A stretch of DNA of 52,630 nucleotides from a virus (Duplodnaviria; Caudoviricetes): positions 1-52,630 of the IMG/VR virus record IMGVR_UViG_3300031111_000529, one strand, 5' to 3'. Position numbers and translations under genes: made by a program. The notes under the pieces are model-generated. The model saw only the letters and a list, made by a program, of their open reading frames with translations. It was not told where the DNA came from and did not search any database. Shown here in pieces: positions 68-24,862 of the stretch. Numbering within the stretch: position 1 is the stretch's first letter; each line of letters starts with the position of its first letter.

Positions 68-1426
68 TCAGATTGCCGGCAACGCCGCGACCGCCCCGGC
101 CGTGTCGGCGAGGTCGAGGTGGGTGTAGGTGTTCATCGTCAGGCGGATGTCGCTGTGTCGCATGAGCTTCTGAGCCACGCTGGGTGAGACACCGTTGCGG
201 GCCAGCAGCGTGGCGAAGGTGTGCCGCAGGCAATGAACGTCCACGGTTCGGCCCTGAGCGTCACGCTTGGGTATCCCTGCGGCTTTCAGGTCAAGATTGA
301 ACCCTCGTAGGAAGTTCCGCCCTGCGTTGAACAGCGGCATGTCCTGGATGGCTTGGCCGCCACTGGCCAGCCGGTCAACGTGCCTTCGCAGGTCGTCGGC
401 GAGGTCGCCTCGCAGAGGCAACGTCGCAGCCCGGCCACTCTTGGCGTGCTTGCCTTCGATGCAAACGTACGGGTTGGCCTCGTCAAGGCACAGCGCACCG
501 ACGGTAAGCGAAGCCACCTCCCCACGGCGAAGACCGGTGAGGATCATGAACTTGTAGGTCAGCGCCCGCTCCTGCCCGAGGCGTTCCAGACGCCTCCGCT
601 CCTTCTCGCTTACCTTGGCCAGCGGCTTGCCCTTGTTCTTGCCGCGACGAATGGTGAGGGCATCCTGTAGCGGCCGCTCCTGCGCCGCCTTGAGCAGCTT
701 GGCGATCTCGTCCTCCGTCAGCGGGCGACGTTTCCTCGCCGGCTCGGCTTCCTCAGCTTTGGGTAGCCCAGCCAGCGGATTGGCCGTCAACCGTCCCTCT
801 GCCACGCACCAGTTACAGAATGCCACGGTTGCCGCCCGGTGCATGTTGATGGTTCGGGCCGACAATGGCTGGGAATCAGGATCGCTCGGCTCGCGAGGCG
901 TCTGTGCCAGCTTCACCATCCATCGCTGGAGCGTCTGGCGGCCGATGTCCTTCAGCGTTCGGAAGGCACACTCACGAACGACCCGCTCCAGTTCCGTCCG
1001 CACGTGGCGGACGTGCTTCGGCGAGACGCGCCTGCCACGGATCGTCTTGACGGCCAGTTGGGCCAGATAGTCTTTGGTGTGCTTGCCGATGGGCGTTTCG
1101 AGTTGGCTGGCGGCCGCCATCTCGCCCTGACTCATGACGCCCGCCTTGACCTTCTCCACGTCGGCCAGAATGTCCGCGAGTACCTTCTCCGCGGCTCGCT
1201 TGTCGCGGCAGCCGGTCGATTGTCGCCGCATCTTGCCAGAGGCGTCACGGTACCGGACGTACCAGCAGTCTGAGACAAACTGGACGCGCCCATCGTCGAG
1301 CAATTCCGCCGTCCGCAACTGGCCCTTGCCGTTGGTCCAGCGAGCCAGCTTCTTACCTCGCTGGGTGATGATATCCGCCTCGTCGGGCATGGGGATCGGA
1401 TAGCTCTTCTTGTAGATTGTTGCCAT
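68..1426 (-). CDS. int: Tyrosine recombinase / phage integrase
   Basis: Catalytic motifs TGLRRGE (R), HAKSG (K), HCLRH (HxxR) and LMRHSDIRLTMNTYTH (H...Y); N-terminal arm-binding-like WYVRYRD segment. Confidence 0.96.
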   Translation of the reverse strand: MATIYKKSYPIPMPDEADIITQRGKKLARWTNGKGQLRTAELLDDGRVQFVSDCWYVRYRDASGKMRRQSTGCRDKRAAEKVLADILADVEKVKAGVMSQGEMAAASQLETPIGKHTKDYLAQLAVKTIRGRRVSPKHVRHVRTELERVVRECAFRTLKDIGRQTLQRWMVKLAQTPREPSDPDSQPLSARTINMHRAATVAFCNWCVAEGRLTANPLAGLPKAEEAEPARKRRPLTEDEIAKLLKAAQERPLQDALTIRRGKNKGKPLAKVSEKERRRLERLGQERALTYKFMILTGLRRGEVASLTVGALCLDEANPYVCIEGKHAKSGRAATLPLRGDLADDLRRHVDRLASGGQAIQDMPLFNAGRNFLRGFNLDLKAAGIPKRDAQGRTVDVHCLRHTFATLLARNGVSPSVAQKLMRHSDIRLTMNTYTHLDLADTAGAVAALPAI

Positions 1427-2295: not shown

Positions 2296-5200
2296 ATGCC
2301 GAGCAGGACAAGCAAGAGCGGCAGTGAACTGTTCATTGTGGACAACAGTGATGCAGACTGGAAGGTCCAGCGTTACCTGCGCGATTGGTGCCAGATCTCG
2401 AAGCAGTTGGATGTCGCTACGGGCTATTTTGAGATCGGTTCTCTATTGTCGCTGGGGGATGCTTGGGAGAGGGTGGATCATGTTCGCATCCTGATGGGCG
2501 ACGAGGTATCTCTTCGCACGAAGCGTGCCTTCGAAGAAGGGCTGGCGCACGCCACCGGAACACTGGATGAGAGCATTGAGGCCGCCAAGGAAACCAATGA
2601 CTTTCTGGTCGGCGTGCCAGCCATCGTTGAAGGGATCCGTAGTGGCAAGATAGCCTGCCGCGTGTACCGTAAGGACAAGTTCCACGCTAAGGCCTACATC
2701 ACGCACGGCCGGCTGGACGTGGTCGGGGCCTCCGCCTTGGTTGGGTCATCAAACTTCACGCACCCCGGGCTGACGGAAAACCTTGAACTCAACGTTCAGA
2801 TCACCGGCAGTCCGGTGAGTGTCCTTCAGGAGTGGTACGAGGAGCACTGGAACAATGCGGAAGACGTGACGCCGGAGATCCTCAGGACTATCGAACGCCA
2901 CACGCGGGAGTATCCCCCCTTCGAGGTCTACGCGCGAAGTCTGCAGGAGTACTTCCGCAGCCACGAGCTGACGGCCGACGAATGGGAACGGCGTGACTCA
3001 AAGATGTACCCGGTCCTGGCCACGTACCAGCGACATGGGTACCACGGCTTGCTGAAGAGAGCCAGGAAGTACGGCGGCGCCTTCCTTTGCGACGGCGTGG
3101 GTTTGGGCAAGACCTACATCGGACTAATGGCCATCGAGCGCCTTGTCCTCCACGAGAAGAAACGCGTCGCGCTCTTCGTCCCGAAGGCCGCACGGGAAGC
3201 CGTCTGGGAAAGCAAGATCAAGAAACACCTGCCGGAGATTCTCGGCGGGTTCCTGAGCTTCCGCATCTACAACCATACGGACCTGCTCCGTACAAACAGG
3301 CAGATTCGCCTCGAACTGGAGCAGATGAAGGAACAGGCGGACGTGGTGATGATCGATGAGGCCCATCACTTCCGCAACACCGGCATTCGCGGTGAGGATG
3401 AAGGTGATCGCAGAAGCCGTTACTGGGAAATGTTCGACATCTGCGATGGCAAGCAGCTCTTCCTGCTTACCGCCACGCCCGTCAACAACCGCCTGACCGA
3501 CTTCCAGCACATGACCGAATTGTTCTCGCGCCGGAAGGCGGAGTACTTCGGCATTGCTCCCCTTGGCATCCACAGCCTGCCCGGCCATGTCCGCACGTTG
3601 GAGAAACAGATTGAGGCCGCTGCCAAAGGACGCGAAGAGGAACTGAGCGAAGGCACGGCAGCCCTTGAGGAAGACAACGCTGAAACAAACCTGGCGGAAG
3701 CCGAGCAGATCCTGCGCGATGACTCACTCTTCGAGGAACTCGTCGTCCAGCGCAGCCGGGCTTACGTCAAGCAGTCCCTCGCCGAAGAGGACGGCCAAGT
3801 GCTTTTCCCGCAGTCCTCACCCCCGAAGGTCGTCCCCTACTCCGTCAAGCAGACCTACGGCAAACTGCTGAAGATGGTGGAGGATGCCTTCCACCAAAAG
3901 AAGCCGCTGTTCTCGCTGGCAATGTACTACCCATGGGACTACTACACCGGCGAACGTGACTTAACCGAGCAAGACGCCGCCATGACCGTTGGCCGCCAGA
4001 AGCAAGTAGCCCGACTGATTCGCACATCCTTCCTCAAGCGATTTGAGAGTTCGGTCTTCGCTTTCAAGGCGTCGTGCGAAACATTGATGAAGAAGCTGAT
4101 CGCCTTCTACCAAGTTCATGCCGAGGATCGCCACGACAAGGATCGCCTGGACAAGTGGCTCGGCCGCAACAAGGACATTACAGGCTTCGACCCGCACAAG
4201 CAGCACACCCTCTTCCCCGACCAGAAGGATCTGGAACTTGAGGAAGAGGACGTTGTGGAGCCGGAGTATTTCGAGAAGGCGTACAAGGATCGGCTCAGCC
4301 CGGATGAGTTCAACATTCCCGGTCTCCTGGCTGATGCCCTAAATGACCTGAACACTATCGCCGATTTCCTCAAGGAACTGGCCCTATTCGAGCCAAAGCA
4401 GGACAAGAAACTCCAGGCGCTCATCCAGCTGCTTCGCGGGCATACGCCGGGGTTGAAAGACGTTGCTCTCCAGCGCCACAAGCTGCTGGTCTTCACCGAG
4501 TTCAAGGACACGGCCCGTTATCTCGCTGAGCAACTCATCGAGGCCGGGTTCGCCGACGTGGTCGAGATCGACTCCCGCACACACTCCAACGGCCGGCTGG
4601 CCGTGATCCGAGCATTTGCTCCTTACTACAACGACTCATCCAGCGCGGACCTGGCCGCCAAAGGCCTGGACGAGACGCGCATCCTGATCTCGACGGATGT
4701 CCTCTCAGAAGGCCTGAACCTCCAGGACGCCACGCGTCTGGTCAACTACGACCTGCACTGGAACCCCGTGCGGCTCATGCAGCGCATTGGCCGAATCGAC
4801 CGGCGGCTAGACCCCGCTGTCGAGGCCCAGATGATCGCTGACCGCCCGGAGATCGAGAAGTTCCGCGGCATGATCCAGTACTACAACTTCCTCCCGCCGG
4901 ACGAATTGAACGAGCTTCTCAGTCTCTACAAGACCGTCACCCACAAGACGCTTCGCATCTCCAAGACCTTCGGCATCGAGAACGGCAAGCTGCTCCGCCC
5001 GGACGATGATTACGATATCCTCCGCGACTTCGTACGCCAGTGCGAGGGAACCGAATCGCAGAGCGAGGGCCTCAGCCTGGAGTTCCAGAAGCTGCTCAAG
5101 GACAACCCCGACATCGAGGCCAGAATCAGCCAATTCCCCAACCGCGTCTTCGCCGGTAAGGAATCGCTCAGTCCCGACACCACAGGCGTCTTCTTCTGCT

Positions 5201-5490
5201 ACGCCCGCCCAGCCAAGGATATAGACAGCGACGACTGGACCATCGAAGCCGGAGACGTGAGGTGGTATCTCTACGACCTTGCCACGGAGAAGATCATCGA
5301 AGACCCATACGAGATCGTCCAGCACATCCGCTCCGGCCCGGACACTCCGCGCGTTTGCCGCATGGGACAAGACGATCTCATCGAGATCCGTAAGAAGATG
5401 GACAAGTACATCAAGAACAGCTACCTCAAAAAGGTCCAGGCTCCAATCGGCGTGAAGCCGGTCCTCCGCACCTGGATGGAGCTAGCCTAG
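2296..5490 (+). CDS. PLD-family nuclease fused to SNF2-type SF2 helicase (restriction subunit-like)
   Basis: FHAKAY...GSSNFT...NLELN (PLD HxK motif); DGVGLGKT (Walker A), IDEAHHFRN, TATP, SEGLNLQ, QRIGRIDR (helicase motifs). Confidence 0.9.
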   Translation: MPSRTSKSGSELFIVDNSDADWKVQRYLRDWCQISKQLDVATGYFEIGSLLSLGDAWERVDHVRILMGDEVSLRTKRAFEEGLAHATGTLDESIEAAKETNDFLVGVPAIVEGIRSGKIACRVYRKDKFHAKAYITHGRLDVVGASALVGSSNFTHPGLTENLELNVQITGSPVSVLQEWYEEHWNNAEDVTPEILRTIERHTREYPPFEVYARSLQEYFRSHELTADEWERRDSKMYPVLATYQRHGYHGLLKRARKYGGAFLCDGVGLGKTYIGLMAIERLVLHEKKRVALFVPKAAREAVWESKIKKHLPEILGGFLSFRIYNHTDLLRTNRQIRLELEQMKEQADVVMIDEAHHFRNTGIRGEDEGDRRSRYWEMFDICDGKQLFLLTATPVNNRLTDFQHMTELFSRRKAEYFGIAPLGIHSLPGHVRTLEKQIEAAAKGREEELSEGTAALEEDNAETNLAEAEQILRDDSLFEELVVQRSRAYVKQSLAEEDGQVLFPQSSPPKVVPYSVKQTYGKLLKMVEDAFHQKKPLFSLAMYYPWDYYTGERDLTEQDAAMTVGRQKQVARLIRTSFLKRFESSVFAFKASCETLMKKLIAFYQVHAEDRHDKDRLDKWLGRNKDITGFDPHKQHTLFPDQKDLELEEEDVVEPEYFEKAYKDRLSPDEFNIPGLLADALNDLNTIADFLKELALFEPKQDKKLQALIQLLRGHTPGLKDVALQRHKLLVFTEFKDTARYLAEQLIEAGFADVVEIDSRTHSNGRLAVIRAFAPYYNDSSSADLAAKGLDETRILISTDVLSEGLNLQDATRLVNYDLHWNPVRLMQRIGRIDRRLDPAVEAQMIADRPEIEKFRGMIQYYNFLPPDELNELLSLYKTVTHKTLRISKTFGIENGKLLRPDDDYDILRDFVRQCEGTESQSEGLSLEFQKLLKDNPDIEARISQFPNRVFAGKESLSPDTTGVFFCYARPAKDIDSDDWTIEAGDVRWYLYDLATEKIIEDPYEIVQHIRSGPDTPRVCRMGQDDLIEIRKKMDKYIKNSYLKKVQAPIGVKPVLRTWMELA

Positions 5491-5508
5491 GGACAAGGGG
5501 TGTGATCA

Positions 5509-8500
5509 ATGTCTGAAGAGATTCGAGAGCAGCTGCAGGCCATCAAGACGTTCCCTTCGCTGGTCAAGTACCTCCGAGATGAACTCGACTGGCCCATCGA
5601 AGCCGATGACTTCGATGACCTGACCTTTGACTACGAGCCCGAAGAACTGGGCATCGATGCCAAGACGGCCGCGAAGATCGAGTACGTCAAACAGCTCCGC
5701 CCCCTTGAGGACGGCCAGCCCTGGGGCATCTTCTTCGTCAAGTTCGAGCCCAAGCGGCTCCCCGTCGTCGCCATGCGCCGCATCCTCCGCGGCCTAGCTG
5801 TCAAGAAGCGTGCCTCCGCCAACCGGGCCGACAGGGCTGCCTGGGCCAGGACCGACCTGCTGTTTATCTCAGCCTACGGCGAGAACGAGCAACGTCACAT
5901 CAACTTCGCCCACTTCCACGAGAGTCCACAGAACGGCGACCTGCCCGTCCTGCGCGTTCTTGGCTGGGATGGCTCGGACACCGCCCTGCACATCGACCAC
6001 GTCCACGAGACGCTCACGAGCAGGCTGCGCTGGCCAGATGACGTTCTGGATGCCAATGCTTGGCGGGAGACCTGGGCCGGCGCCTTTACCCTTAAACACC
6101 GCGAGGTCATCACCACCAGCAAGCAGATGGCCATTCGTCTGGCCGACCTTGCCCGGCAGATCCGCAAGAAGATCAACTCCATCCTGGCCATCGAGAAACA
6201 AAGCGGTCCCATGCATAAACTCATGGCTGCCTTCAAGGAAGCCCTCATTCACGACCTGTCAGAAGATGACTTCGCCGATACTTTTGCTCAGACCATTAGC
6301 TATGGGCTTCTGATCGCAGGCATGTCTCGTACCGTCAACGGTGAAGGCACGGCTGTGATCGCGACCGATATTGTCGAGATGGTTCCCAGAACGAACCCCT
6401 TTCTCCGCGAAATGCTTGCGACATTCCTAACCGTCGGGGGGCGTAGAGGCAGGCTGGACTTCGATGAACTGGGCATCAGTGACGTCGTCGATGTTCTTCG
6501 CAGCCCGGATACGCACATGGAGGCCGTCAAACGCGACGTTGGCGACGCAAATGTACGAGAAGATCCTGCCCTCTATTTCTACGAGCTGTTCCTGAAAGAA
6601 TACGACGCTAAGAAGCGCATGCAGCGCGGCGTCTTCTACACCCCCCGGCCGGTCGTATCCTACATCGTCCGCTCCGTCCACGAGCTGCTCCAGACCGAGT
6701 TCGGCTTGGAAGACGGCCTTGCCGACACGACTACCTGGGGGGAGATGGTCGAGAGATGTCCCGACCTCAAGCTGCCGACCATCAAGGTCAAGAAGCCCGA
6801 CTTGCCTGACCTGGTGAATGAGCCCATTGATCCCTCCACCCCGTTTATCCAGATACTCGACCCGGCCACCGGCACCGGCACCTTCCTTGTCGAGGTCATC
6901 GACGTCGTCCACAAGACGATGAAGCAGAAGTGGCTCGATGGTGGCCACTTGCCTCTGCAGATTCCCGAACTGTGGAACGACTACGTGCCCGAGCACCTTC
7001 TGCCACGTCTGTACGGCTACGAACTCATGATGGCCCCATATGCCATCGCCCACATGAAGATCGGCCTGAAGCTCTTCGAGACCGGCTACCGCTTCGGAAC
7101 CGACGAGCGGGCCCGCATCTATCTCACCAACGCACTCGAGCCCGCGCAGGACTTCTCAGACACGTTCGAGCAGATGGCCCCCGCCCTAGCCCACGAAGCC
7201 CAGGCCGTCAACGACGTCAAGCGGCATCATCGCTTCACCGTAGTGATCGGGAATCCACCGTATTCCGCGCTATCCGCCAATCTGACCGAACAGGCGCGTC
7301 GACTCGTGACACGGTTTAAGTACATTGATGGCATCAAACTCCACGAACGCGGCGCGTTGCAGTTGGAGAAGAATCTTCAGGATGACTATGTCAAGTTCTT
7401 GGCCATTACCGAAGATCACTTGAGCGAAAGCGGGATTGGCGCTTGCGGCATCATCTGCAATCACGGTTTCATCGACAATCCCACTCTACGAGGTCTACGC
7501 TGGTCGCTGTTGGACCGTTTCAGCAACCAGTGGGTCCTGGATCTGCACGGCAATGTCAATCGCCGCGAAGTCGCGCCGGACGGCTCGCCCGATCAGAATA
7601 TCTTCGACATCAAGGACGCGGGGGTAGCAATCTTCCTCGCCACACGCGGCCAGCGCACATGTTCTGCGGACGCTGGACTGCGCCAAGCGGACCTCTGGGG
7701 GGGAGACCGTGTGACGCAGAAATACCCATTTCTGTCGACGGAGTCAGCCGCGACAACGCCGTGGGAATCGGTCTCGACCGGCCCCGAGCTGTACCTGTTC
7801 TGCAACATCGGTGGCCCCGACGCGGAAGAATACGCGGCTTGGCCTAAGGCTACGGAGGTCTTTCCGCTGCACAGTATCGGCATGATTACGGCGCGGGACG
7901 CGTACGTCATTGACTTCGAGCCGGGGCTGGTCTTAGAGCGGGCGAAGGCCTTCCGCGGCTCAACTTTGGATGACGAGGCGACGTGCCAGGCGCTGGGCAT
8001 TCCGTTAAAGAAAGGCTGGAACATTGCTCGGGCGCGCCAGCGGATTCAGCAAGTGACGAACCTGGCATCCTGCGTTCACCCGCTGCTGTACCGTCCGTTC
8101 GACATCCGGCCTGTGTTCTATCACGAATCGCTGATCTGGGGCATGGCCTGGCCAGTGATGCAGCACATGCTCGAAGGGCAGAACTTGGCCCTGATCACAT
8201 CGCGGATGACGAAGGGGGAGGACTTCCAGCATGTGTTGGTTAGCCGGGGTCTTTCCGAGGTGATTCTGCTTTCGTCGAAGACCTCCAACAACGCCTTCGT
8301 TTTCCCGTTGTACTTACGCAATCAGGAGGACATGCTTCATGCTGGCGGCACGACGAACATCAGCACGGAGTATACCCGAAGCATCTCGCAGGTCATCGGT
8401 GGCGCTGCACCTCCTCAAGCGATCTTTCAGTACATCTATGCCGTGCTGCACAGTCTAACGTACCGTAAGCGGTACGTGCATCTGCTGAAGCGCGACTTTC

Positions 8501-8991
8501 CGCGCATCCCGGTTCCAGCGACTGCGCATGTCTTCGACGGCCTGGCCGAATTGGGCGGGGAACTGGTTCCTCTGCACCTTCTGGAGTCCCCGCTGCTGGA
8601 CAAGCCGATTACCGCCTACACCGGCCCGGCAAATCCGGAGGTGGAGAAGGTCAGCTACAGCGACGAAACCGTCTGGCTGGACAGGGCCAAGACCCGTGGC
8701 TTTGAGGGCGTGCCGGAAGACGTCTGGAACTTCCACATCGGCGGGTACCAAGTCTGCCACAAGTGGCTCAAGGATCGCCAGGCCAAGGGCGGCAGGAACC
8801 CACGCCCCGGCCGCGTACTCAAGAAAGACGACGTCGAGCACTACCGCAAGATCGTCACGGCCCTCCACCACACCATCCGCCTCATGGGCGAGATCGACGA
8901 AGTCATCGAGCAGCACGGCGGCTGGCCCGACGCCTTCATCACTGACCCAAAGGTCTTGGAAGGCCTGAAATCAAGAGATGGGAAGCCATAG
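5509..8991 (+). CDS. N6-adenine DNA methyltransferase with C-terminal target-recognition domain (Type ISP/IIG-like)
   Basis: GVFYTP, ILDPATGTGTF (SAM binding), VIGNPPY (catalytic); C-terminal YRPFD, YIYAVLHS.YR.RY...DFPRIP and IGGYQVCHKWLKDR as in Type ISP specificity domains. Confidence 0.92.
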   Translation: MSEEIREQLQAIKTFPSLVKYLRDELDWPIEADDFDDLTFDYEPEELGIDAKTAAKIEYVKQLRPLEDGQPWGIFFVKFEPKRLPVVAMRRILRGLAVKKRASANRADRAAWARTDLLFISAYGENEQRHINFAHFHESPQNGDLPVLRVLGWDGSDTALHIDHVHETLTSRLRWPDDVLDANAWRETWAGAFTLKHREVITTSKQMAIRLADLARQIRKKINSILAIEKQSGPMHKLMAAFKEALIHDLSEDDFADTFAQTISYGLLIAGMSRTVNGEGTAVIATDIVEMVPRTNPFLREMLATFLTVGGRRGRLDFDELGISDVVDVLRSPDTHMEAVKRDVGDANVREDPALYFYELFLKEYDAKKRMQRGVFYTPRPVVSYIVRSVHELLQTEFGLEDGLADTTTWGEMVERCPDLKLPTIKVKKPDLPDLVNEPIDPSTPFIQILDPATGTGTFLVEVIDVVHKTMKQKWLDGGHLPLQIPELWNDYVPEHLLPRLYGYELMMAPYAIAHMKIGLKLFETGYRFGTDERARIYLTNALEPAQDFSDTFEQMAPALAHEAQAVNDVKRHHRFTVVIGNPPYSALSANLTEQARRLVTRFKYIDGIKLHERGALQLEKNLQDDYVKFLAITEDHLSESGIGACGIICNHGFIDNPTLRGLRWSLLDRFSNQWVLDLHGNVNRREVAPDGSPDQNIFDIKDAGVAIFLATRGQRTCSADAGLRQADLWGGDRVTQKYPFLSTESAATTPWESVSTGPELYLFCNIGGPDAEEYAAWPKATEVFPLHSIGMITARDAYVIDFEPGLVLERAKAFRGSTLDDEATCQALGIPLKKGWNIARARQRIQQVTNLASCVHPLLYRPFDIRPVFYHESLIWGMAWPVMQHMLEGQNLALITSRMTKGEDFQHVLVSRGLSEVILLSSKTSNNAFVFPLYLRNQEDMLHAGGTTNISTEYTRSISQVIGGAAPPQAIFQYIYAVLHSLTYRKRYVHLLKRDFPRIPVPATAHVFDGLAELGGELVPLHLLESPLLDKPITAYTGPANPEVEKVSYSDETVWLDRAKTRGFEGVPEDVWNFHIGGYQVCHKWLKDRQAKGGRNPRPGRVLKKDDVEHYRKIVTALHHTIRLMGEIDEVIEQHGGWPDAFITDPKVLEGLKSRDGKP

Positions 8992-9027
8992 TCGCCTCTC
9001 ATCTGGAGCGACAGCCCACTAAGCCGC

Positions 9028-9387
9028 ATGGGAACACTTACCATAGACAATCAGGACGGCCTTCACTTGCGGACCAATGCTCCTGCTGAGCAGGCCCAAC
9101 GTTATGCGGCTGCGTTCCGCCAGGTATGGCAGACGATTCACCCAAATGACCGGCAGAGAGCCAAGGGCCACTGGCTCGGCAATAGCCCCACCGGACATCG
9201 AGCTGAGCGACCTGTGGCAACACAACGAGCGGGCTGGGCAACGGTATATTCTGGACCTGCTATTGAGCGTAACCAATCTGAGCGTTCAGACAATGGATAC
9301 CGTGGACAGCCTGCCGACGCTGGACCTCTCCGCGGGGGCGGAGAGATGATCCGAAACAGAAGCATGGAGTTGCCAGCGAAGGAGTAA
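9028..9387 (+). pseudogene. Hypothetical ORF, possibly frameshifted remnant
   Basis: Protein-like N-terminus (MGTLTIDNQDGLHLRTNAP...FRQVWQTIHP) seems to continue in the overlapping frame (PPDIELSDLWQH) after a C-run near 9186; no recognisable family. Confidence 0.3.
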
Positions 9388-9392
9388 TCCTC

Positions 9393-10169
9393 ATGGGCCA
9401 CAACCGACTTCATGTAATCGCGCAGACGCGGCTTTGGCGCGAGGTGGTCGGCACGCTGGAAGACCACGACAGTGGGATGGCCGATGTTGCGTCGGCGACG
9501 GCGACGGCCGCGCAGACCGGCCTTCAACGGGCCAAGGGGGACGAAGGGCTTTCGTACGCATTCTGGCTTCTCTGCCAGATTCCGCTGGCCGCCAAGAAGG
9601 CCGACTTCGGCAAGGGCCTTCGCGGGCTGGGGCTGGACGTCCCCGACGCGCCTTCGACGTTCGACGTAGCCGCCGGTTTCACTGAGGCCGTCGAGTCCCA
9701 CCTTCGCCGGACCCGAGGCCGGACAGACATAGGTGAAATCGCCCAACTGGCCGCTGCCGAGTGCCTGACCGCCACGGCGACGCAGGCGCTGAAGGGCCTG
9801 TTCAGTTCAGAGGCCGAGAACGTCCAGAACACCTTCGGGGGGCAGGCGACGCAGAAGAACTTCGGCTTCTTCGCCCAGGACTTCTTCGCACGGTTTGCGA
9901 GCCGCTTCCTGGCATACCACCTCAGCCGGGAGCTTTCGAACCATGTCGGCGAAGGTCGTCGGTTTGCGAACATATCCGAGCATGAGCAGTTCAAGGAAGC
10001 GATGGAGCTTCATTGCCGCCAGACCGCCCGCATTGTGCGGGAGTATGCCGGGACCTGGCATTCGAAGACAAGCTATGAATCGGGAATCACGCCCCGGAAG
10101 GCCAAGCGATTCGTCGCCCATGCGATGACCAAGCTGAGCGATGAGCTTTCGCGAAGGGAGGGGCGATGA
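9393..10169 (+). CDS. Alpha-helical partner of the QueC-like enzyme (QatB-analogous; N-terminus Met-Gly-His)
   Basis: AAGGAG RBS; 258 aa, Ala-rich and helical; stop overlaps the QueC start (ATGA). QatB analogy is inferred from position, size and Gly2. Confidence 0.75.
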   Translation: MGHNRLHVIAQTRLWREVVGTLEDHDSGMADVASATATAAQTGLQRAKGDEGLSYAFWLLCQIPLAAKKADFGKGLRGLGLDVPDAPSTFDVAAGFTEAVESHLRRTRGRTDIGEIAQLAAAECLTATATQALKGLFSSEAENVQNTFGGQATQKNFGFFAQDFFARFASRFLAYHLSRELSNHVGEGRRFANISEHEQFKEAMELHCRQTARIVREYAGTWHSKTSYESGITPRKAKRFVAHAMTKLSDELSRREGR

Positions 10170-11866
10170 AGCACGAACGCCTAATCCTTTGCGGCGGCGC
10201 ATCGGCCCCCCGAGGCGTGCGGGCTGAACGGCTTCACCTGGACCTTTGGGGCCGCGACCCGAACGTATTCCTGAAGATTCGCAATATCACCGACGCCGTG
10301 GCCAAGAACCCCCCGCCAGTCCTGCTGGACTTGCTGGACGTGGCCGCCTACCTGTACGCCGGCGATCAATGCGTTCCGCGCGGGGGGACGGCCAGCTTCG
10401 ACTACGGCGACCGATGGGACCGCCGATTGCGCTACGTGATTCCGCTTCGAAGGCCCAAGGTATGGCAACGCGCCAGAGTCAAAGAAGCCCTGGCCGACGT
10501 TCTCGGCTGGATGACCGATGACCAGTTTGAGTTCCGTTTTCCGCAACTGAAGAATCCCCCGAAGCTGCCGAGTTACCTTGAGTTCGACAAGGACACGGCG
10601 AACCCCACGGGCATTGAGGAAGTCTGCATGTTCTCGGGCGGGTTGGATTCGCTGGCGGGCGCGGTCAAAGAAGCCGTGGTGGACGGCCGGAAAGTTGCGC
10701 TGGTTGGCCACTGCCCCGCCCCGCAACTGCACAAGCGGCAGGACCAGCTTCTTGAGGCCCTGGCCGCAAAGTGCAAGCCGGCCAAGCGGCCGTTCTTTGT
10801 CCAAGTATGGGCAAACAAGGCTTCCAGCTTGACCAAAGACACGTCGCAGCGCATCAGGTCCTTCCTGTTCGCTTCGCTGGGCGCGGTGATTGCCGGCATG
10901 ATGAAGCTGAATCGCGTTCGGTTCTACGAGAACGGCCCGGTTTCGCTGAACCTTCCCCTTTGCGAACAGCTTGTTGGGGCGCGGGTCACGCGGACGACGC
11001 ACCCGAAGACGCTAGCCGGGATGAGTAAGCTGCTCAGCCTGTTGCTAGGAACCGACTTCGCGGTGGACAACCCGTTCCTGTGGAAGACGCGAACCGACAC
11101 TGTGCTTGACCTGAAAGCCGCGAAGGCCGAAGACCTGCTCCCCTACACCGTCAGTTGCAGCCATACGCGGGGAATGACAACGGGCTACCCGCATTGCGGT
11201 TGCTGTTCGCAGTGCATAGACAGGCGCTTCGCCGTCTTGGCCGCCGATTGTGGACAACACGACCCCGCCGATTCCTACCAACTGGACGTGCTCACCGACG
11301 GGCGAGACAAGACCGAAGACCGCACCATGCTGGAACGCTACTTGGGCTTCGCGGCCAAGGTCGAAGCCGTTAAGGACGAGAACACCTTCTTCACTGAGTT
11401 CCCCGAAGCCTATCGCACAATCAACGCCATGGACGGGGACCGGCGGGAATCGGCCAAACAGGTCATCGCACTGTGCAAACGACACGGGGAGCAGGTCAAC
11501 GGCGTTGTCGACCGCGCCTTGGCCGATGCGGCTGCAAGTGGAGCATTGCGGCGCGGGGAACTGCCAGGCAATTGTGCGCTCCTGCTGGTGGGAAGCAGGC
11601 ACTCGACCCCCGCGCCTACGACCGAAGCCACTGGGCAGGATAGTGCATCGCCTGCCGAACAGGATACCGACCGCCCACGCTGCGCGCCAATGACACGAAC
11701 CGAGATAGCCCGCCGGCTGCTAAACCGAACAGACGCCCGCGTTCGTCAAGCTGAAGGCATGATGAAGCGCCTTGGCTTGCGGCAGGAAGACGGCAAGTTC
11801 TACACGATCCTGGTTGACCAACTGGATCCTGCGACGAGGACACGCCTTCTGAAGCCAGCTTCTTGA
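10166..11866 (+). CDS. QueC/QatC-like PP-loop ATP pyrophosphatase with C-terminal linker and HTH-like extension
   Basis: FSGGLDS PP-loop; RSFLF, ENG and TRTTHP motifs; Zn cluster SCSH...HCGCCSQCIDRR; QatC-like N-terminal extension (DLLDVAAYLYAGDQ); tail MTRTEIARRLLN... Confidence 0.88.
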   Translation: MKHERLILCGGASAPRGVRAERLHLDLWGRDPNVFLKIRNITDAVAKNPPPVLLDLLDVAAYLYAGDQCVPRGGTASFDYGDRWDRRLRYVIPLRRPKVWQRARVKEALADVLGWMTDDQFEFRFPQLKNPPKLPSYLEFDKDTANPTGIEEVCMFSGGLDSLAGAVKEAVVDGRKVALVGHCPAPQLHKRQDQLLEALAAKCKPAKRPFFVQVWANKASSLTKDTSQRIRSFLFASLGAVIAGMMKLNRVRFYENGPVSLNLPLCEQLVGARVTRTTHPKTLAGMSKLLSLLLGTDFAVDNPFLWKTRTDTVLDLKAAKAEDLLPYTVSCSHTRGMTTGYPHCGCCSQCIDRRFAVLAADCGQHDPADSYQLDVLTDGRDKTEDRTMLERYLGFAAKVEAVKDENTFFTEFPEAYRTINAMDGDRRESAKQVIALCKRHGEQVNGVVDRALADAAASGALRRGELPGNCALLLVGSRHSTPAPTTEATGQDSASPAEQDTDRPRCAPMTRTEIARRLLNRTDARVRQAEGMMKRLGLRQEDGKFYTILVDQLDPATRTRLLKPAS

Positions 11867-11875
11867 CGCAGTTCC

Positions 11876-11946
11876 TTACGGCCATTTCCGACCATTTCCG
11901 ACCATCCCCGCCAGTTACGACCATCCCCGCCACCACCCCATTCCGG
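11876..11946 (+). repeat. Phased ~10-bp direct repeats RCCATYYCCG (putative activator binding sites)
   Basis: GCCATTTCCG/ACCATTTCCG/ACCATCCCCG at 11881/11891/11901, ACCATCCCCG at 11920, CCATTCCG at 11938; followed by -10-like CATACT at 11962. Confidence 0.75.
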
Positions 11947-12038
11947 ACCTTGTCTGCGCACCATACTGTGGACCGTAGGACGCGGCAGGCAACGGACGCC
12001 TACGCGATTTCAACGGCGACGGACATGGAGCAGTGCTT

Positions 12039-12443
12039 ATGCAGCAAGTCAGGAGAAACGCCACCGACGGGCGTAACGTCGGCGGGGAATCGGCCCCCGC
12101 GCAACTGGCCGAAATGCCCAACGTGCAAGGGAAGGCCGACCTCATCCCTGCAGAGGCGCGGCTGGTAGAGATGATGCAGCGGATCAACTACGGCCGCATC
12201 CTGGGGCTATCGGTGCGCCACGGCGAGCCAGTGATGGACCCGCCGCCGCGCATCTTCCATGAGTACAAGTTTCCCGGTGATAACGGGGCGCGCCCCGAAG
12301 CCACCAAGGTCGACTTTGCCCTCAAGGCCCAGGTCCGCGACCTCTTCGCCCAACTGGAGGCGATGGGTAATGGAGTCGTTCGGTCCATCGAGATTCAGCG
12401 CGGTCTTCCGTTTCGGATGACCGTCGAGGAGGAGGCCGCCTAA
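12039..12443 (+). CDS. Small conserved hypothetical protein with two helix-beta-beta half repeats (DUF2292/YezD-like by resemblance)
   Basis: GGAG RBS before ATG 12039; halves LVEMMQRINYGRILGLSVRHGEP and LFAQLEAMGNGVVRSIEIQRGLP resemble each other. Confidence 0.65.
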   Translation: MQQVRRNATDGRNVGGESAPAQLAEMPNVQGKADLIPAEARLVEMMQRINYGRILGLSVRHGEPVMDPPPRIFHEYKFPGDNGARPEATKVDFALKAQVRDLFAQLEAMGNGVVRSIEIQRGLPFRMTVEEEAA

Positions 12444-12494
12444 GCACCGGGGTCCGGCTCCCCACATGACATGTGATCCAAACGAATTGAGTAC

Positions 12495-12629
12495 CTGACA
12501 ACTAACCGGCCACGAAGTGGAGGCGTTGTGGGTGCCGCAGAAGCGGCAGTCCTGCAACGCCTCCCGTTCTATAGGTCGCAGCTTCGGTTGGCACCCACGC
12601 GACGCCTTCCCGGCCAAAGGAAGGCACAA
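12495..12629 (+). promoter_or_regulatory. Structured RNA leader/attenuator of the sigma gene
   Basis: Long hairpin 12519-12564; RBS-sequestering hairpin GCCTTCC/GGAAGGC 12604-12625; alternative pairing of 12519-12536 with 12590-12610. Confidence 0.65.
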
Positions 12630-15201: not shown

Positions 15202-16892
15202 TCCAGCTGCGCCCATACCAGGTCGAGGCCGTCAGTTCAGTCTATGAGCACCTGCAGCATAGAGATGACCATCCGTGTGTCGTGATCCCGACGGCTGGGG
15301 GTAAGACTCCGGTGATGGCCAGCATATGCCGAGACGCAGTGCAGCGCTGGGACGGGCGCGTGTTGATCCTGGCCCACGTGAAGGAACTGCTGGAGCAGGC
15401 CGTCGAGAAGCTCCACATCATGGCTCCTGATCTGTGGAATCGTATCGGGGTCTACTCGGCCGGCCTTCGCAGTCGCGACACCGACCACCCGATCATCGTC
15501 GCGGGCATCCAGAGCGTCTACCGCAGAGCTGCCCAGCTGGATCGCTTCGATCTCATCTGTATCGACGAGGCCCACATGCTTCCGCCGGACGGCGAGGGGA
15601 TGTATCGCACGTTCATGGCCGAGGCGCAAGTGGTCAACCCGAACGTCCGCCTCATCGGCCTGACTGCCACTCCGTACCGCATGACGACCGGCATGATCTG
15701 CTCACCGGACAATCTCCTTAACCACGTCTGCTACGAAGTGGGCGTCCGCGAGTTGATCGTGCAGGGATACCTGTGCCCGCTGAAGACCAAGGCAGGCAGG
15801 CGGAAGGTGGACACGTCTGGGCTGCACATACGGGGCGGTGAGTTCATCGCCGGCGAGGTAGAGGCGCTGATGGACGACGACTCGCTGGTTCAGTCGGCCT
15901 GTCAGGAGATCGTCGATCACGCGCGTGACAGGCATTCGGTGCTTATCTTCGCGTCCGGCGTCCAGCATGCCCTGCACGTCCAGCGCGTACTGGCCGAGAT
16001 AGGCCAGGAGTGCGGCTTCGTGTGCGGTGAGACGCTTCCCTACAGACGTGCGCAGACGCTGGAGCAGTTCAAGGCAGGCAAGCTGAAGTACTTGGTCAAC
16101 GTTAACGTGCTGACTACCGGGTTCGACGCGCCCAATATCGACTGCGTGGCCCTGCTGAGGCCGACGAACTCGCCGGGCCTGTACTACCAGATGGTAGGTC
16201 GAGGCTTCAGGCTCGACCCGTCGAAGGCAGACTGCCTGATCCTGGACTTCGGCGGCAACATCATGCGACACGGACCGGTCGATGCCCTCCAGATCAAGGA
16301 TCCCGCCAGCAGCGACGGCCAAGCTCCTGCTAAGGAGTGCCCGCAGTGTCAGGCCGTCATCCACGCCGCCTACGCCAATTGTCCGTACTGCGGCTACGAA
16401 TTCCCGCCGCGCCAGCACCGCGAGCACGACCGGCAGGCCACGACTGCCGGCATCCTATCCGGCGAGGTGACCGAGACGGACTGCGAGGTCAGCGAAGTCT
16501 ACTACAGCGTGCACGTCAAGCGCGATGCTCCGGAGGACCACCCGCACAGCATGCGCGTCGATTATCGTTGCGGCTTCAACGAGTACCACAGCGAGTGGGT
16601 CTGCTTCGAACACACCGGCTACGCCAGGGCGAAGGCCGAGGCGTGGTGGCGCGCCCGATCCAACGAGCCGGTCCCCAGTACCGTCGAGGAGGCGGTGGAT
16701 ATCTGTGAGGAAGGCGGGATAGCGCCGACGCTGGCCATCACGGTGCGTTCAGTGTCGGGCGAGAAGTTCGACCGGATTACAAACTACCAGCTCGGGCCCA
16801 TCCCGCCGCGCTTGGACGGCAGCGACGAGCGTGACGAGGGCGGTCTACCCATACACGACTGGCCGCCCGATGACTGCGAGGTGCCGTTCTAG
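15198..16892 (+). CDS. SF2 DEAD/DEAH helicase (RadD/YejH-like) with Zn finger
   Basis: LRPYQ, PTAGGKT, IDEAH, TATP, LTTGFDAP, QMVGRG; CPQC...CPYC. Confidence 0.93.
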   Translation: MIQLRPYQVEAVSSVYEHLQHRDDHPCVVIPTAGGKTPVMASICRDAVQRWDGRVLILAHVKELLEQAVEKLHIMAPDLWNRIGVYSAGLRSRDTDHPIIVAGIQSVYRRAAQLDRFDLICIDEAHMLPPDGEGMYRTFMAEAQVVNPNVRLIGLTATPYRMTTGMICSPDNLLNHVCYEVGVRELIVQGYLCPLKTKAGRRKVDTSGLHIRGGEFIAGEVEALMDDDSLVQSACQEIVDHARDRHSVLIFASGVQHALHVQRVLAEIGQECGFVCGETLPYRRAQTLEQFKAGKLKYLVNVNVLTTGFDAPNIDCVALLRPTNSPGLYYQMVGRGFRLDPSKADCLILDFGGNIMRHGPVDALQIKDPASSDGQAPAKECPQCQAVIHAAYANCPYCGYEFPPRQHREHDRQATTAGILSGEVTETDCEVSEVYYSVHVKRDAPEDHPHSMRVDYRCGFNEYHSEWVCFEHTGYARAKAEAWWRARSNEPVPSTVEEAVDICEEGGIAPTLAITVRSVSGEKFDRITNYQLGPIPPRLDGSDERDEGGLPIHDWPPDDCEVPF

Positions 16893-17827
16893 AGATGTTC
16901 TATCTGACCGAAGTCAAGATACCGTTGTTGGAAGCGTTCCAGGTGGCGGGCCAACGCGCTGCCTTGACAGGAACGGCCGCGTTCTATGACCTGTTCCAGC
17001 GTGAGCAGTCTGATCCGGTCCTTGAAGGCCGGCACAAGTCGATCTGTCAGTTGGCTCACCAGCTCAGGGGACTCGGTGTCCTGCTCGGGCGCCAGGACGT
17101 AGTTGATGGCGCTGGTCAGCGCGTGCTTCTTTGCATATGCAAGCGTGAGGAGCAGGTTGCGTGCGATCTGGTCGAAGCCATTCTGCCGGTACCAGCCAAG
17201 CCCTTCGTCGGTGAACATCTCCAGTTTCAGAGCGAGGGCGAACTTCTTGTCCTGTTTCGTTGCCGCGTTGCCGCCAAGCTTATCTGTGTACTTGGTCTCT
17301 ATGCTGACCAGGCCGGGCCGGCCCTGCGGATCGGCGAAGAAGATTGCCGCGTCGAAGGCCGTCTTGTCGTCTATGTAGTCTTCAATGGGCGTGGGGATCA
17401 TCTCCACGATGACATCCTGGACCTTTGCGATGGGCGACAAGGGGAACATTGCCGCGAGCACAGATGTGGCATCAGGATGGCTATCGCGGACGGCCGCCCG
17501 AAAGTCAGCGAACAGATTGAAACACATGGGCATGCTGGAGAGCATGTTGTTGAAGAGGCGGAATTCATCGATGGTCAGGGCTGGGTTGTCCTCCTTGTCA
17601 GAGACGCGCTTTTTGGCGTATGCGAAGGCTTGGGGACTGATGAAGTTAGCACCAGTCAGATGTCCGTCGACCAATGCGCTACCTACAGGCCGAGCGCCCT
17701 TGCGCCAGGGGCCGCATGCCGATATCCCCAAGACCTCGACGCGATACCAGCTCTGCAGAAGACGGCATTGGCGTGTGAATGTGTTCTTGTCGTTGGGAAG
17801 CGGACCGTATCTATCATCGATGACCAT
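16889..17827 (-). CDS. PD-(D/E)xK putative restriction endonuclease (PGN_0703-like), antisense moron
   Basis: NMLSSMPMCFNLF; D.TAFDA...SIETKYT; F.QIARN.LL. Confidence 0.75.
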   Translation of the reverse strand: MVIDDRYGPLPNDKNTFTRQCRLLQSWYRVEVLGISACGPWRKGARPVGSALVDGHLTGANFISPQAFAYAKKRVSDKEDNPALTIDEFRLFNNMLSSMPMCFNLFADFRAAVRDSHPDATSVLAAMFPLSPIAKVQDVIVEMIPTPIEDYIDDKTAFDAAIFFADPQGRPGLVSIETKYTDKLGGNAATKQDKKFALALKLEMFTDEGLGWYRQNGFDQIARNLLLTLAYAKKHALTSAINYVLAPEQDTESPELVSQLTDRLVPAFKDRIRLLTLEQVIERGRSCQGSALARHLERFQQRYLDFGQIEHL

Positions 17828-22488: not shown

Positions 22489-23034
22489 TCAGAGTGTTGA
22501 TTCAACCGCGCGGACTACGAGGCCATCTTCGAATGCGTTCCAAGCCCGAAAGTTCCGCAGAACGAATGCACGCAGAAAGAGCGTCGCCGCCTCATAGAGC
22601 AGACGGTTCAGCCACAAGGAAAGAAGAAATGCAATGAGGAATAGGTTTACCCATAGCTCATCTATGACTCTGGAGACGGCTACGGCAATTGCACCAACAA
22701 GCAGTAGTGTAATCAGACCGATCTTGGCGCTACCACGTGCGGACATTGAGGAATACACGAACCAAGCAATGACTACGCCGGGAACGGCGAGGAAGGCCCA
22801 CCAGTGGAAGGCGAGAACTGCGAAGAGGCAACTGGCAACTAGAACCAAAGGTGTGCCGAGGAAAGTAATCCACACGACCGCTTTCTCAATGTACACAGGT
22901 TCTCCTGTGAGCCCTTCAACGCGCCGAAGAGAGACATCGGTGTACATCTTCCTCGCATATGTGCGATCAACACCAACTAGAACGCTGCCCTGTTTCTCAG
23001 CCTCAACAAGCTCTCTGTGCTCCCGTTCGGTCAT
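22489..23034 (-). CDS. Membrane protein moron (about 4 hydrophobic segments)
   Basis: MTEREHRELVE...; AAAGGA RBS; hydrophobic helices; visibly lower GC than flanks. Confidence 0.75.
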   Translation of the reverse strand: MTEREHRELVEAEKQGSVLVGVDRTYARKMYTDVSLRRVEGLTGEPVYIEKAVVWITFLGTPLVLVASCLFAVLAFHWWAFLAVPGVVIAWFVYSSMSARGSAKIGLITLLLVGAIAVAVSRVIDELWVNLFLIAFLLSLWLNRLLYEAATLFLRAFVLRNFRAWNAFEDGLVVRAVESTL

Positions 23035-23173
23035 GATTCCTTTCTCAAGTCTCGGCGTTTGTAGTTCGTGCATCCGGACCATGAGGTCTGCTGGGCAGTG
23101 TAAACCCCGATTCCCTGCACTGCAAGAGAGGGACTCAATGCCTTGCCAGCGGCAAGCCACGAAGCCCCAAGAG

Positions 23174-23198
23174 CACCCCGGCCAAGGTGACCGGGGTG
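23174..23198 (-). terminator. Hairpin downstream of the antisense small-gene operon
   Basis: CACCCCGGTCA-CCT-TGGCCGGGGTG followed by CTCTT on the minus strand. Confidence 0.45.
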
Positions 23199-23221
23199 GA
23201 GGAGGAGGTGTGAGACTGGCG

Positions 23222-23797
23222 CTACTTGGCCAGCTCGAACTTGCCCCGCTCGACCTTGCGGAACCGTGCGGCGTCGCCCTTGGTGGCGATCTCACGGATG
23301 ATGGCAGCATAGATGGTTGCTGCCGGTGTCTTGCCCTTGGTCTGCCAGAGGCCCTTGGCCAGCATCTGTTCGACCATGTCCTTGGCTCCAAGAGGCCCCT
23401 TGGCATCGGCCAGCACCTGCGCGGCTGCGTCAAGGCCGCTGGAGCGTTTCTTCTTGTCCTTCTCAACTGCCACCATCGCGGCGCTGACGGCGTCGGCCTT
23501 GTTGGCCTCGGTGATGCGGCCGCGTTTCTTCTTCGACGTCGGTACGGTGACGCCCTTGGCCAGATCGCCTTTCTGGACGGCCTCGACCGTCTTGGCGATG
23601 TCGGGCTTGATCTTGCCAGGCGCCCTCGTCTCGTGACGGAGGCGCTGGGCGGACCTGATGCGAATCTTCTTGTTCGTTCGCATGTTGGTGGCATCCCAGC
23701 CGCCGCGCGGGTTGGCCGCGTCGATGCGGACGGTAGCCATGTTGCCGCTGACCTTCGCTGCGTAGTGCTTGCCAATCTTGATCTCGCTCTTCTTCAT
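23222..23797 (-). CDS. Basic protein with C-terminal HARE-HTH (winged helix)
   Basis: SGLDAAAQVL...MVEQMLAKGLWQTKGKTPAATIYAAIIREI...RFRKVERGKF; AAAGGAAAG RBS. Confidence 0.85.
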   Translation of the reverse strand: MKKSEIKIGKHYAAKVSGNMATVRIDAANPRGGWDATNMRTNKKIRIRSAQRLRHETRAPGKIKPDIAKTVEAVQKGDLAKGVTVPTSKKKRGRITEANKADAVSAAMVAVEKDKKKRSSGLDAAAQVLADAKGPLGAKDMVEQMLAKGLWQTKGKTPAATIYAAIIREIATKGDAARFRKVERGKFELAK

Positions 23798-23836
23798 GAT
23801 GCTTTCCTTTCTGCTGGGCCCGGTTGGCCCGGTGTC

Positions 23837-24115
23837 CTAAAATCCGACCTCTTCGCAGAGGCGGTTCTGCTGGTCGCCGCCGCCGACCACGTCGGTCAGC
23901 AGATCGGCGAACCACTGAATTTGCCGGTTTACGTCGTCGCTCTTGGTGCTGCCTGCTCGAAGCAGCGATGCGATGGCAGCCACCGCATGTGGCGAAAGCT
24001 TGTCACGGACAGCGCCGGCCAGGATGTCCTTGGGCTCTGGGTCTTCAGGCACGGTCACGCGCGTCTTGCGGCCTCGGATCGTTGCCTCGTATGTCTTGGA
24101 TCTCTTCTGCTTCAC
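23837..24115 (-). CDS. Hypothetical protein
   Basis: AAGGAGAG RBS, GTG start, part of a tightly packed antisense operon. Confidence 0.7.
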   Translation of the reverse strand: MKQKRSKTYEATIRGRKTRVTVPEDPEPKDILAGAVRDKLSPHAVAAIASLLRAGSTKSDDVNRQIQWFADLLTDVVGGGDQQNRLCEEVGF

Positions 24116-24130
24116 GGTTGCTCTCCTTGC

Positions 24131-24532
24131 TCAGCGGCTCTGGACGATGGTCAGCTGGAACTCGCTGCCGTCGTCTGTGGTGATGACCAGACCGGCGCTA
24201 TCGGTCAGTACGCCGGCCTCGTCGAAGGTGCTGACGCGCTCGATCTGGGCCAGGTCTTCCGGCATGTCGAAGTGGTCGAGATCGTCGATATCCATGTTGG
24301 ATACCTCCTCGAGCAGCGTCTTCAGGCTGCCCTGGAACTTTGTTGGGCTCGTTGTCTCGCCATAGCTCTGCAGCATTCGTCGCCAGAGTGTTTCGCTCAT
24401 AGGCTCGTGGGCCTCCAGCAGGCCGTCGCCTTCGACCTGCCAGAGCGTGGGGTCTACCGGGTTGGTCGAGACGGTCACCAGCCCGTCTGCGATGCGGTTG
24501 GCTTGGTCGATGGTCAGCTTTCTGTCTGTCAC
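24131..24532 (-). CDS. Acidic hypothetical protein
   Basis: AAAGGAG RBS; C-terminal VSTFDEAGVLT...GLVI...DGSEFQLTIVQSR. Confidence 0.75.
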   Translation of the reverse strand: MTDRKLTIDQANRIADGLVTVSTNPVDPTLWQVEGDGLLEAHEPMSETLWRRMLQSYGETTSPTKFQGSLKTLLEEVSNMDIDDLDHFDMPEDLAQIERVSTFDEAGVLTDSAGLVITTDDGSEFQLTIVQSR

Positions 24533-24544
24533 GATGGTCTCCTT

Positions 24545-24832: not shown

Positions 24833-24862
24833 GGTCGTGCTCCTTGTCTCTTGGGTTGGTGG

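Follow-up and report, generated by a model that had tools for sequence, protein, structure and literature searches.

A QatC-family enzyme and its Met-Gly-His partner form a recurrent, mobile gene pair resembling the QatBC core

What do a QueC-like enzyme and the Met-Gly-His protein encoded directly upstream of it do in a provirus in which neither QatA nor QatD accompanies them? The question is raised by positions 9393–11866 of IMGVR_UViG_3300031111_000529, an IMG/VR record of a Caudoviricetes virus; the window analysed here is the whole stretch of 52,630 bases, which is a complete provirus record. An earlier note on this DNA had proposed a distinct two-gene class of protein deazaguanylation with a different output. 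Our analysis leads us to a related reading, to which we give a probability of roughly 0.58: the pair is a two-gene unit complete in itself, spread by horizontal transfer and related to the QatBC core of the QatABCD defence system, and the enzyme modifies Gly2 of the partner. By analogy with that core, the pair probably serves defence.

The partner gene (9393–10169, plus strand) opens with the codons ATG GGC CAC, that is, Met-Gly-His, and encodes 258 amino acids, in which an N-terminal tail (MGHNRLHVIAQTRLW) precedes an all-helical domain. A Shine–Dalgarno-like AAGGAG, read from the sequence at 9379–9384 on the same strand, lies 8 nt before its ATG at 9393. The enzyme gene (10166–11866, plus strand) encodes a QatC-family PP-loop enzyme of 566 amino acids with an extra C-terminal tail. 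The stop codon of the partner (TGA, 10167–10169) and the start codon of the enzyme (ATG, 10166–10168) share an ATGA at 10166–10169 (plus strand), an overlap that couples the translation of the two genes. The coupled pair, its overlap, the SGGLDS and TRTTHP motifs, the cysteine site and the Met-Gly-His start are all in the sequence as the earlier note had described them.

Sequence, motifs and fold all assign the enzyme to the QatC family. Its residues 48–384 match the PADLOC QatC model at 5.4e-52, and the solved QatC chains in the PDB are recovered at 4.8e-24 (9vlk_A) and 2.2e-20 (9zee_B). Libby et al. (PMC13329287) list as motifs of the QatC cluster D(x)4R(x)7WxR, DxW/YxxxF, RxRxxxF/Y, ExG, HP, P(x)4TK and a four-Cys site, all of which a motif search finds in the enzyme, with small indels and variations, as D67(x)4R72(x)11W84xR86, DQFEFRF, RIRSFLF, E255-N-G257, H279-P280, PFLWKTR and C331(x)12C344xxC347xxC350. 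The same kind of search places the SGGLDS pyrophosphate-binding loop at residues 157–162 (10634–10651, plus strand), TRTTHP, identical to that of E. coli QatC in the HMMER alignment, at residues 275–280 (10988–11005, plus strand), and the zinc site (C331...C344-x2-C347-x2-C350) at 11156–11215 (plus strand). Across 35 members of the enzyme family, G158, G159, D161 and S162 do not vary and S157 hardly does, and the four cysteines are invariant in the family alignment.

The AlphaFold model of the enzyme (pLDDT 84.2) aligns to Pseudomonas aeruginosa QatC (9y01_B) over 475 columns with a TM score of 0.74 by target, and its Foldseek E value of 6e-17 is far better than that obtained with QueC (3.2e-5) or Cap9 (5.1e-4). 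By this alignment the QueC core is flanked by QatC-like extensions at both its N- and its C-terminus, which bears out the N-terminal extension claimed earlier. The C-terminal helical extension (residues 383–458; 11312–11539, plus strand) consists of helices in the model and, in the predicted complex, provides the base of the partner interface. In a quick tree, a long branch with full support separates the enzymes from six canonical QatC proteins; the 35 database enzymes in this tree are the top matches to the provirus enzyme, not each checked for an MGH neighbour, and the clean split is in part expected because they were sampled in this way.

Database names point to a different role. Relatives of the enzyme are named '7-cyano-7-deazaguanine synthase', and PHROG 1550, labelled 'QueC-like queuosine biosynthesis', matches residues 21–421 at 2.1e-9. 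The enzyme would then be a metabolic QueC, a phage auxiliary function supplying preQ0 either to tRNA or to the modification of DNA with 7-deazaguanine, an explanation that we consider extremely improbable. The TIGR00364 QueC model gives 16.4 bits where its cut-off is 150.3, Pfam QueC covers only the zinc region (residues 285–356, 3.4e-5), and a motif search for the canonical catalytic motifs YxQxHxxE, VPxRN and YPDC returned no match in the enzyme. Where QueC and Cap9 have the Tyr and Asp residues that recognize the base, QatC has a pair of threonines (PMC13279940), and the provirus enzyme likewise carries Thr-x-Thr. Canonical QueC (3bl5 and 2pg3; Foldseek E 3.2e-5 and 4.7e-5) shares the PP-loop Rossmann core and the zinc site, but lacks both terminal extensions and does not act on a protein. 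Further, a queC deletion is not complemented by E. coli QatC (PMC13329287), and all five host genomes tested, each carrying the pair, encode QueC and a PTPS/QueD gene over cut-off; such hosts can supply the precursor, and a metabolic role for an extra enzyme is therefore unnecessary. PHROG 1550 itself is phage-borne, of QatC length and annotated as a metabolic moron, and comes without the partner family.

The gene content of the provirus agrees with this. Searches of its 52,630 bases found no KAP_NTPase (PF07693, QatA), TatD (PF01026, QatD), TGT/DpdA (PF01702), SMODS CD-NTase (PF18144), PTPS/QueD or Radical_SAM/QueE, so that the absences read from the sequence earlier extend over the whole record and, with no TGT, PTPS or Radical_SAM match, the locus is indeed not a DNA-modification cluster. 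The same absences bear on the comparison with Cap9–CdnD of type IV CBASS (9nto). Cap9 also has a QueC fold and modifies the N-terminal glycine of a partner protein after Met removal, as we propose for the pair; Cap9, however, is a minimal enzyme of ~185 amino acids in which the Tyr and Asp that recognize the base in QueC are retained, a CD-NTase serves as its substrate, and it operates with the TGT Cap10.

The partner has no family in Pfam, PADLOC, NCBIfam or PHROGs; a PADLOC 'JAB' match (E 0.0057, in 1 of 39 members) was rejected as noise. Its own family, at E≤1e-3, comprises 169 clusters when grouped at 90% identity; at 50% identity it has 1113 representatives, 673 of these at ≤1e-10, and the homologues are almost all 250–290 amino acids long. 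They share the N-terminal consensus MGHxRLGxLPxTxxWxxVV. The start is MG in 225 of 269 family proteins, 200 of which read MGH, and in another 15 the motif is preceded by a start called upstream of it. Of the remaining 29, most begin inside the conserved region, which indicates truncated calls, and four full-length proteins among the 269 lack Gly2. The conservation of Gly2 that the earlier note had asked about is thus found, most exceptions being truncated or mis-started calls. The provirus protein keeps M1, G2, H3, R5, L6, T12, W15, V18 and V19 of the tail.

Pairing with the enzyme recurs across genomes and viruses. In species-representative genomes, the partner gene is followed directly by a QatC-like gene in 62 of 65 loci; in two of the others the contig ends at the partner (L054 and L058) and the third is a weak partial partner match (L065). 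Viral contigs from IMG/VR repeat the arrangement in 36 of 37 cases, and 33 of the 35 viral partners with an aligned N-terminus have xGH there. The pairing is more than chance; it is obligate. The one viral locus without a QatC-like gene within 6 kb downstream (L092, partner at 6001–6741) encodes a partner that starts MDH rather than MGH, a single case that may be a decaying orphan. A database protein of 1079 amino acids (P0376) combines a partner-like part (8–250), a QatC-like core and a C-terminal phosphoesterase in one polypeptide; its called start, MHPVRF, has no Gly2, and either a genuine fusion or a frameshift in the assembly could account for it. The pair also occurs on the Leptospira noguchii plasmid NZ_CP091938.1 (L066, 3120–5764), as proteins of 260 (MGHERLGILPKT...) and 621 amino acids, both annotated as hypothetical; this spirochaete plasmid is AT-rich and the pair adjoins an IS982 transposase. 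Searches by tblastn with the partner gave no match among plasmids (E≤0.01) or cultured phages (E≤0.001), but on plasmids the search was not sensitive enough: the family profile found the Leptospira member at 1.7e-38, so this negative is false.

The predicted complex adds a structural argument. With partner and enzyme residues 1–480 as input, the prediction passes with a score of 0.88, the best control reaching 0.00, and its runs share at least 80% of contacts with a partner pLDDT of at least 87. Partner residues 1–8 and 10 are predicted to touch the enzyme, which contributes T275 and T277 of TRTTHP, the 258–277 loop, the conserved 74–85 segment and the helices at 383–430. This use of an active-site loop and C-terminal helices is as in the crystal, where QatC holds QatB through its active-site loop and helices a12–a14 (PMC13279940). 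The prediction supports binding and a QatBC-like architecture and stops short of placing Gly2 at the adenylate: of the co-folding outcome that the earlier note had looked for, the model shows the partner N-terminus lying on the enzyme.

Seen as a whole, the likeness to the QatB–QatC core (P. aeruginosa 9y01/9y02; E. coli 9vlk/9vll and 9zee/9zef) extends to the gene order, the coupled translation, a helical protein of roughly 260–280 amino acids directly upstream of the enzyme, an enzyme of the same fold with both extensions, SGGxDS, TRTTHP and the four-Cys site, and a partner that starts Met-Gly and has conserved Pro and Trp residues shortly afterwards. The two also differ. The partner reads MGHxRLGxLPxTxxW with a short tail, whereas QatB reads MGTS...PxW with a long acidic disordered one; the enzymes are ~100–450 residues longer than QatC and end in a variable C-terminal tail; the provirus enzyme has a 4-residue insert in D(x)4R...WxR and a Cys loop of x12, not x19; and no QatA or QatD comes with the pair.

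The points that weigh against our reading, those on whether the partner is itself a QatB included, are gathered here. At E≤1, NCBIfam QatB (NF041924) misses both the partner and the Leptospira relative, whereas the canonical QatB controls (L067 and L068) score 181 and 100 bits. The partner family profile finds no QatB chain in a PDB library that contains 9vll_A and 9zee_A, and no QatB in six canonical qat operons; the partner sequence and profile return only chance-level rows from the PDB sequences. Profile alignment with hhalign gives a probability of 0.6% against 28 QatB sequences and of 8.2% against six more diverse ones, and the precomputed QatB family PF28083 is present on 0 of 120 listed partner homologues versus 120 of 120 listed QatB homologues. 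Foldseek with the partner model has no match at E≤0.001 in a PDB library that includes 9y01, and no QatB stands among its best 50 matches. The model gives the partner a short, half-helical tail where that of QatB is disordered over 30–90 residues, residue 3 is His where QatB has Thr-Ser, and the provirus partner departs from its own family with His7, Ile9 and Ala10 in place of Gly, Leu and Pro. On the enzyme side, NCBIfam QatC (NF041925) gives 203.4 bits, below its equivalog cut-off of 280, as does the Leptospira relative with 187.6 bits. As for the complex, 58 of 80 solved complexes attain a score of 0.88, as do 2 of 110 mismatched pairs, counts that hold only roughly here because our own alignments were used. 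Host helpers acting in trans are possible, the gene absences being established for the provirus and the locus flanks. Gao et al. leave the QatC reaction unresolved after failed reconstitution, and they remark that the threonine pair may mean another substrate. Finally, our literature search found no chemistry, binding or phage phenotype reported for any member of the family.

The Pfam copy used for the family scan lacks the QatB model PF28083 and is blind to canonical QatB, so that its negatives on the partner are uninformative on this point. Structural comparison gives a divided picture. The AlphaFold model of the partner, which yielded the Foldseek negative above, is all-helical, with 12 helices (pLDDT 82.8, pTM 0.81) and residues 1–11 unstructured at pLDDT below 50. 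A separate model of the protein in the ESM Atlas matches a cluster that is 81% PF28083 QatB with TM scores of 0.71/0.71 over 220 residues; a feature search there gives 0.89 to a cluster with 15% QatB. The 8.2% hhalign alignment is co-linear over 203 columns, and its best stretch is the most conserved segment of the partner, RTDIGEMAQLAAAESL. Gly2 is conserved in the family, but within MGH, whereas the essential Gly2 of QatB lies in MGTS. By sequence, the partner is not a QatB; we take it for an analogue of QatB, probably a very remote homologue, and have not filed it as QatB.

If the enzyme is of the QatC family and the partner QatB-like, the pair might be an incomplete Qat system that draws QatA and QatD from genes at other places in the host genome. 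A survey anchored on QatD found full qatABCD in 98.1% of 631 clusters (PMC13434339), and our absence data cover the provirus rather than the host chromosome. We nevertheless hold this to be very unlikely. Profiles for QatA, QatD and QatB, built from three canonical operons and recovering 3 of 3 further operons as positive controls, found nothing in the flanks of 66 genome or plasmid loci and the provirus, nor in 37 viral loci; in 29 of the 62 genome loci that carry both genes, the flanking sequence spans at least 3 kb on either side. The long branch in the tree also argues against a Qat remnant, and only about 34% of the QatC cluster adjoins qatA or qatD in the first place (Libby et al., PMC13329287). 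The two-gene unit of the earlier note is borne out as a recurrent and self-contained one. The statement in that note that this is neither a Qat nor a CBASS operon stands as regards the missing QatA, QatD and CD-NTase, but does less than justice to an enzyme with all QatC-cluster motifs and to a partner with a fold link to QatB. The different output that it inferred is not needed: QatB and QatC alone defend against some phages and are a minimal defence unit (PMC13279940; PMC13434339), and missing QatA and QatD thus call for no new output. The pair is better described as a divergent branch of the QatBC core.

The unit is also mobile. In its closest relative (L001), the partner is 88% and the enzyme 85% identical, and the only long blastn match between that locus and the provirus is 9334–12111 (plus strand; 2789 bp, 80.9% identity), from 59 bp upstream of the partner start to 245 bp beyond the enzyme stop; two other matches are short (160 and 264 bp). 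The flanks there hold a type I restriction–modification methylase and specificity subunit instead. Since this is the only long stretch common to the two, the pair travels as a cassette of ~2.8 kb. The 245 bp that follow the enzyme stop (11867–12111) are still conserved within the 81% block. They overlap the start of an open reading frame (ORF) of 136 amino acids (12033–12443) with no Pfam or PHROG family, and a hairpin with a 9-bp stem at 12061–12085 scores as terminator-like on the minus strand only. A promoter and terminator scan of 8900–12600 found 0 promoter-like sites and 2 terminator-like sites, versus 3.3 expected by chance.

The neighbours of the pair are those of mobile elements. Taking the 25 commonest families in each list, the 97 upstream ORFs include 17 large serine recombinases, 5 tyrosine integrases, helicases and methylases, and the 103 downstream ORFs include sigma factors (4) as well as AAA_24, DUF3987- and primase-type genes. 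In Phycisphaerales-type loci (for example L010 at 5911–7886, L021, L022, L028 and L038) a same-strand string of four genes recurs, in the order serine recombinase (~520 amino acids), an ORF of ~140 amino acids, partner and enzyme; these loci are closely related and count as one element family, not as independent evidence. The family as a whole is found mainly in Planctomycetota, Acidobacteriota, other environmental lineages and proviruses.

Such company could mean that the pair is no defence system at all, but regulates lysogeny, excision or replication of the element that carries it, with a DNA-binding-like tail on the enzyme. In the provirus, whose genes include an integrase (68–1426, minus strand), RusA, helicase, primase-polymerase, ParB-methylase, terminase, lambda-type portal and capsid, the pair has the integrase on one side and the replication genes on the other, a place at which control regions lie; recombinases, sigma factors and primases recur as neighbours; and several members have tails resembling helix-turn-helix (HTH) domains, all of them weak matches. 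A housekeeping role of this kind seems to us improbable, though less so than a stranded Qat system. The cassette moves between unrelated backbones, is also found on the Leptospira plasmid beside an insertion sequence, and in the provirus adjoins another defence-like pair (an HKD-SNF2 helicase and a type IIG-like methylase); some tails are nuclease or phosphoesterase domains, and the closest characterized relatives are defence proteins.

The tails themselves are the most variable part of the family: enzyme residues 1–470 form a conserved core, tail length and content vary, and the enzyme ORFs range across loci from ~546 to 922 amino acids. The provirus enzyme runs ~100 residues past the QatC fold in its model, through a disordered linker (479–501) into a small helix/hairpin domain at residues 505–566 (11678–11863, plus strand). 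Residues 480–566 match no Pfam family at E≤0.1, and the structural neighbours in the ESM Atlas (HTH_Tnp_Mu_1, MarR/ArsR and HTH_17; TM 0.44–0.53 by query) are weak matches over a short stretch; the tail is possibly a winged-helix DNA binder. The tail of the Leptospira enzyme matches the DpnII-MboI restriction endonuclease family (9.8e-11), and the fused protein P0376 ends in a calcineurin-like metallophosphoesterase (2.6e-13). Of ten tails tested, from nine relatives and this fused protein, six have no family and two have sub-threshold HTH matches; precomputed Sigma70_r4_2 annotations occur on two relatives among those listed. We infer that these variable tails take over the role of QatA and QatD.

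Taken together, this evidence suggests how a QatBC-like pair could work. Coupled translation would produce partner and enzyme together, and the two would form a 1:1 complex in which, on the predicted model, the helical domain of the partner rests on the 258–277 loop and 383–430 helices and its N-terminal tail lies on the enzyme. Methionine aminopeptidase would remove Met1 of the partner and expose Gly2. The enzyme would then adenylate a carboxylate, most likely host-made 7-carboxy-7-deazaguanine (CDG), and the free amine of Gly2 would attack to give an N-terminal deazaguanine amide, as with Cap9 and CdnD and as reported for QatB. For CdnD, ATP-dependent activation of CDG by Cap9 and attack by the Gly2 amine have been described (bioRxiv 10.1101/2025.04.06.647259). 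For QatB, whose deazaguanylation the earlier note took as established, the support is narrower: a modified N-terminal peptide, labelled NDG, was detected as a single peptide by liquid chromatography–tandem mass spectrometry (PMC13639016), and the doubts of Gao et al. already cited apply. The complex, modified or not, would finally block superinfecting phages, with the enzyme tail replacing separate QatA and QatD as a DNA-directed sensor or effector that is winged-helix-like in the provirus and nuclease- or phosphoesterase-like in relatives.

The same complex may carry out another chemistry: the attached group may be a carboxylate other than 7-deazaguanine, the reaction may be plain adenylylation, or the partner may serve as an activator or scaffold. 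We think this unlikely, yet it deserves more weight than the other alternatives. QatC-type enzymes exchange the deazaguanine-reading Tyr and Asp for two threonines, as TRTTHP also does here, and in the account given by PMC13279940 CDG was unseen in the QatBC crystals and the activity was not reconstituted. Moreover, His3 is near-invariant among the MG starters, unlike the MGTS of QatB and the MGGS of CdnD (PMC13279940), which hints at a different recognition. On the other side, genes of the CDG pathway are found in every host tested, and the conservation of Gly2 fits an N-terminal amine acceptor, both as expected for modification of Gly2 by a QatBC-like pair. A bolder form of that proposal, possible in our view but doubtful, would make the MGH proteins a second, independent substrate class of QatC-type enzymes and the pair a complete two-gene immune system with which temperate phages and integrative elements exclude rivals. 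The swappable tail would be the built-in sensor or effector that in the classical system comes in trans from QatA and QatD, and His3 would mark a mode of modification or recognition unlike that of QatB or CdnD.

Several other features of the provirus are recorded here in their own right. Between the integrase and the Qat-like cassette, 2296–8991 (plus strand) holds a second defence-like pair, an HKD/PLD-SNF2 helicase of 1064 amino acids (PADLOC 'C3a139 HKD+Snf2', 3.9e-50) followed 19 nt later by a type IIG/ISP-like methyltransferase of 1160 amino acids (Type_ISP_C, 1.4e-67; PADLOC REase_MTase_IIG, 3.7e-171). A PDDEXK_13/REase-ARP nuclease (16889–17827, minus strand; 4.8e-65) lies in the middle of the replication module on the opposite strand and may be another inserted defence or accessory gene. 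An ORF of 885 amino acids with no Pfam or PHROG family (22634–25291, plus strand) falls in the region of the most extreme AT skew of the provirus (−0.27 and −0.36 at 23–25 kb), and one of 2275 amino acids (44117–50944, minus strand) lies near the right end in a stretch of lower G+C (0.53–0.58). No tRNA or Rfam match was found in the 52,630 bases.

QatBC as a minimal unit is already published. A natural two-gene QatC family with a partner family of its own is not described in the parts of the qat literature consulted, nor did a text search find the terms 'QatB-like' or 'QatC-like'; the one survey of qat arrangements in print started from QatD and could not have found an MGH-partner family. Current tools miss the pair as well: PADLOC names only the QatC half, the enzyme falls below the cut-off of the NCBI QatC model, and no model exists for the partner. 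The family may explain part of the roughly two-thirds of QatC-cluster genes that have no qatA or qatD neighbours (Libby et al., PMC13329287). How QatBC stops phages, the step that follows modification of QatB, is given as an open question in PMC13279940. With 1113 partner clusters spread over many phyla and proviruses, the family is a natural and widespread two-gene version that offers a simpler system, and the nuclease or DNA-binding domains fused to some of its enzymes are a hint at the output.

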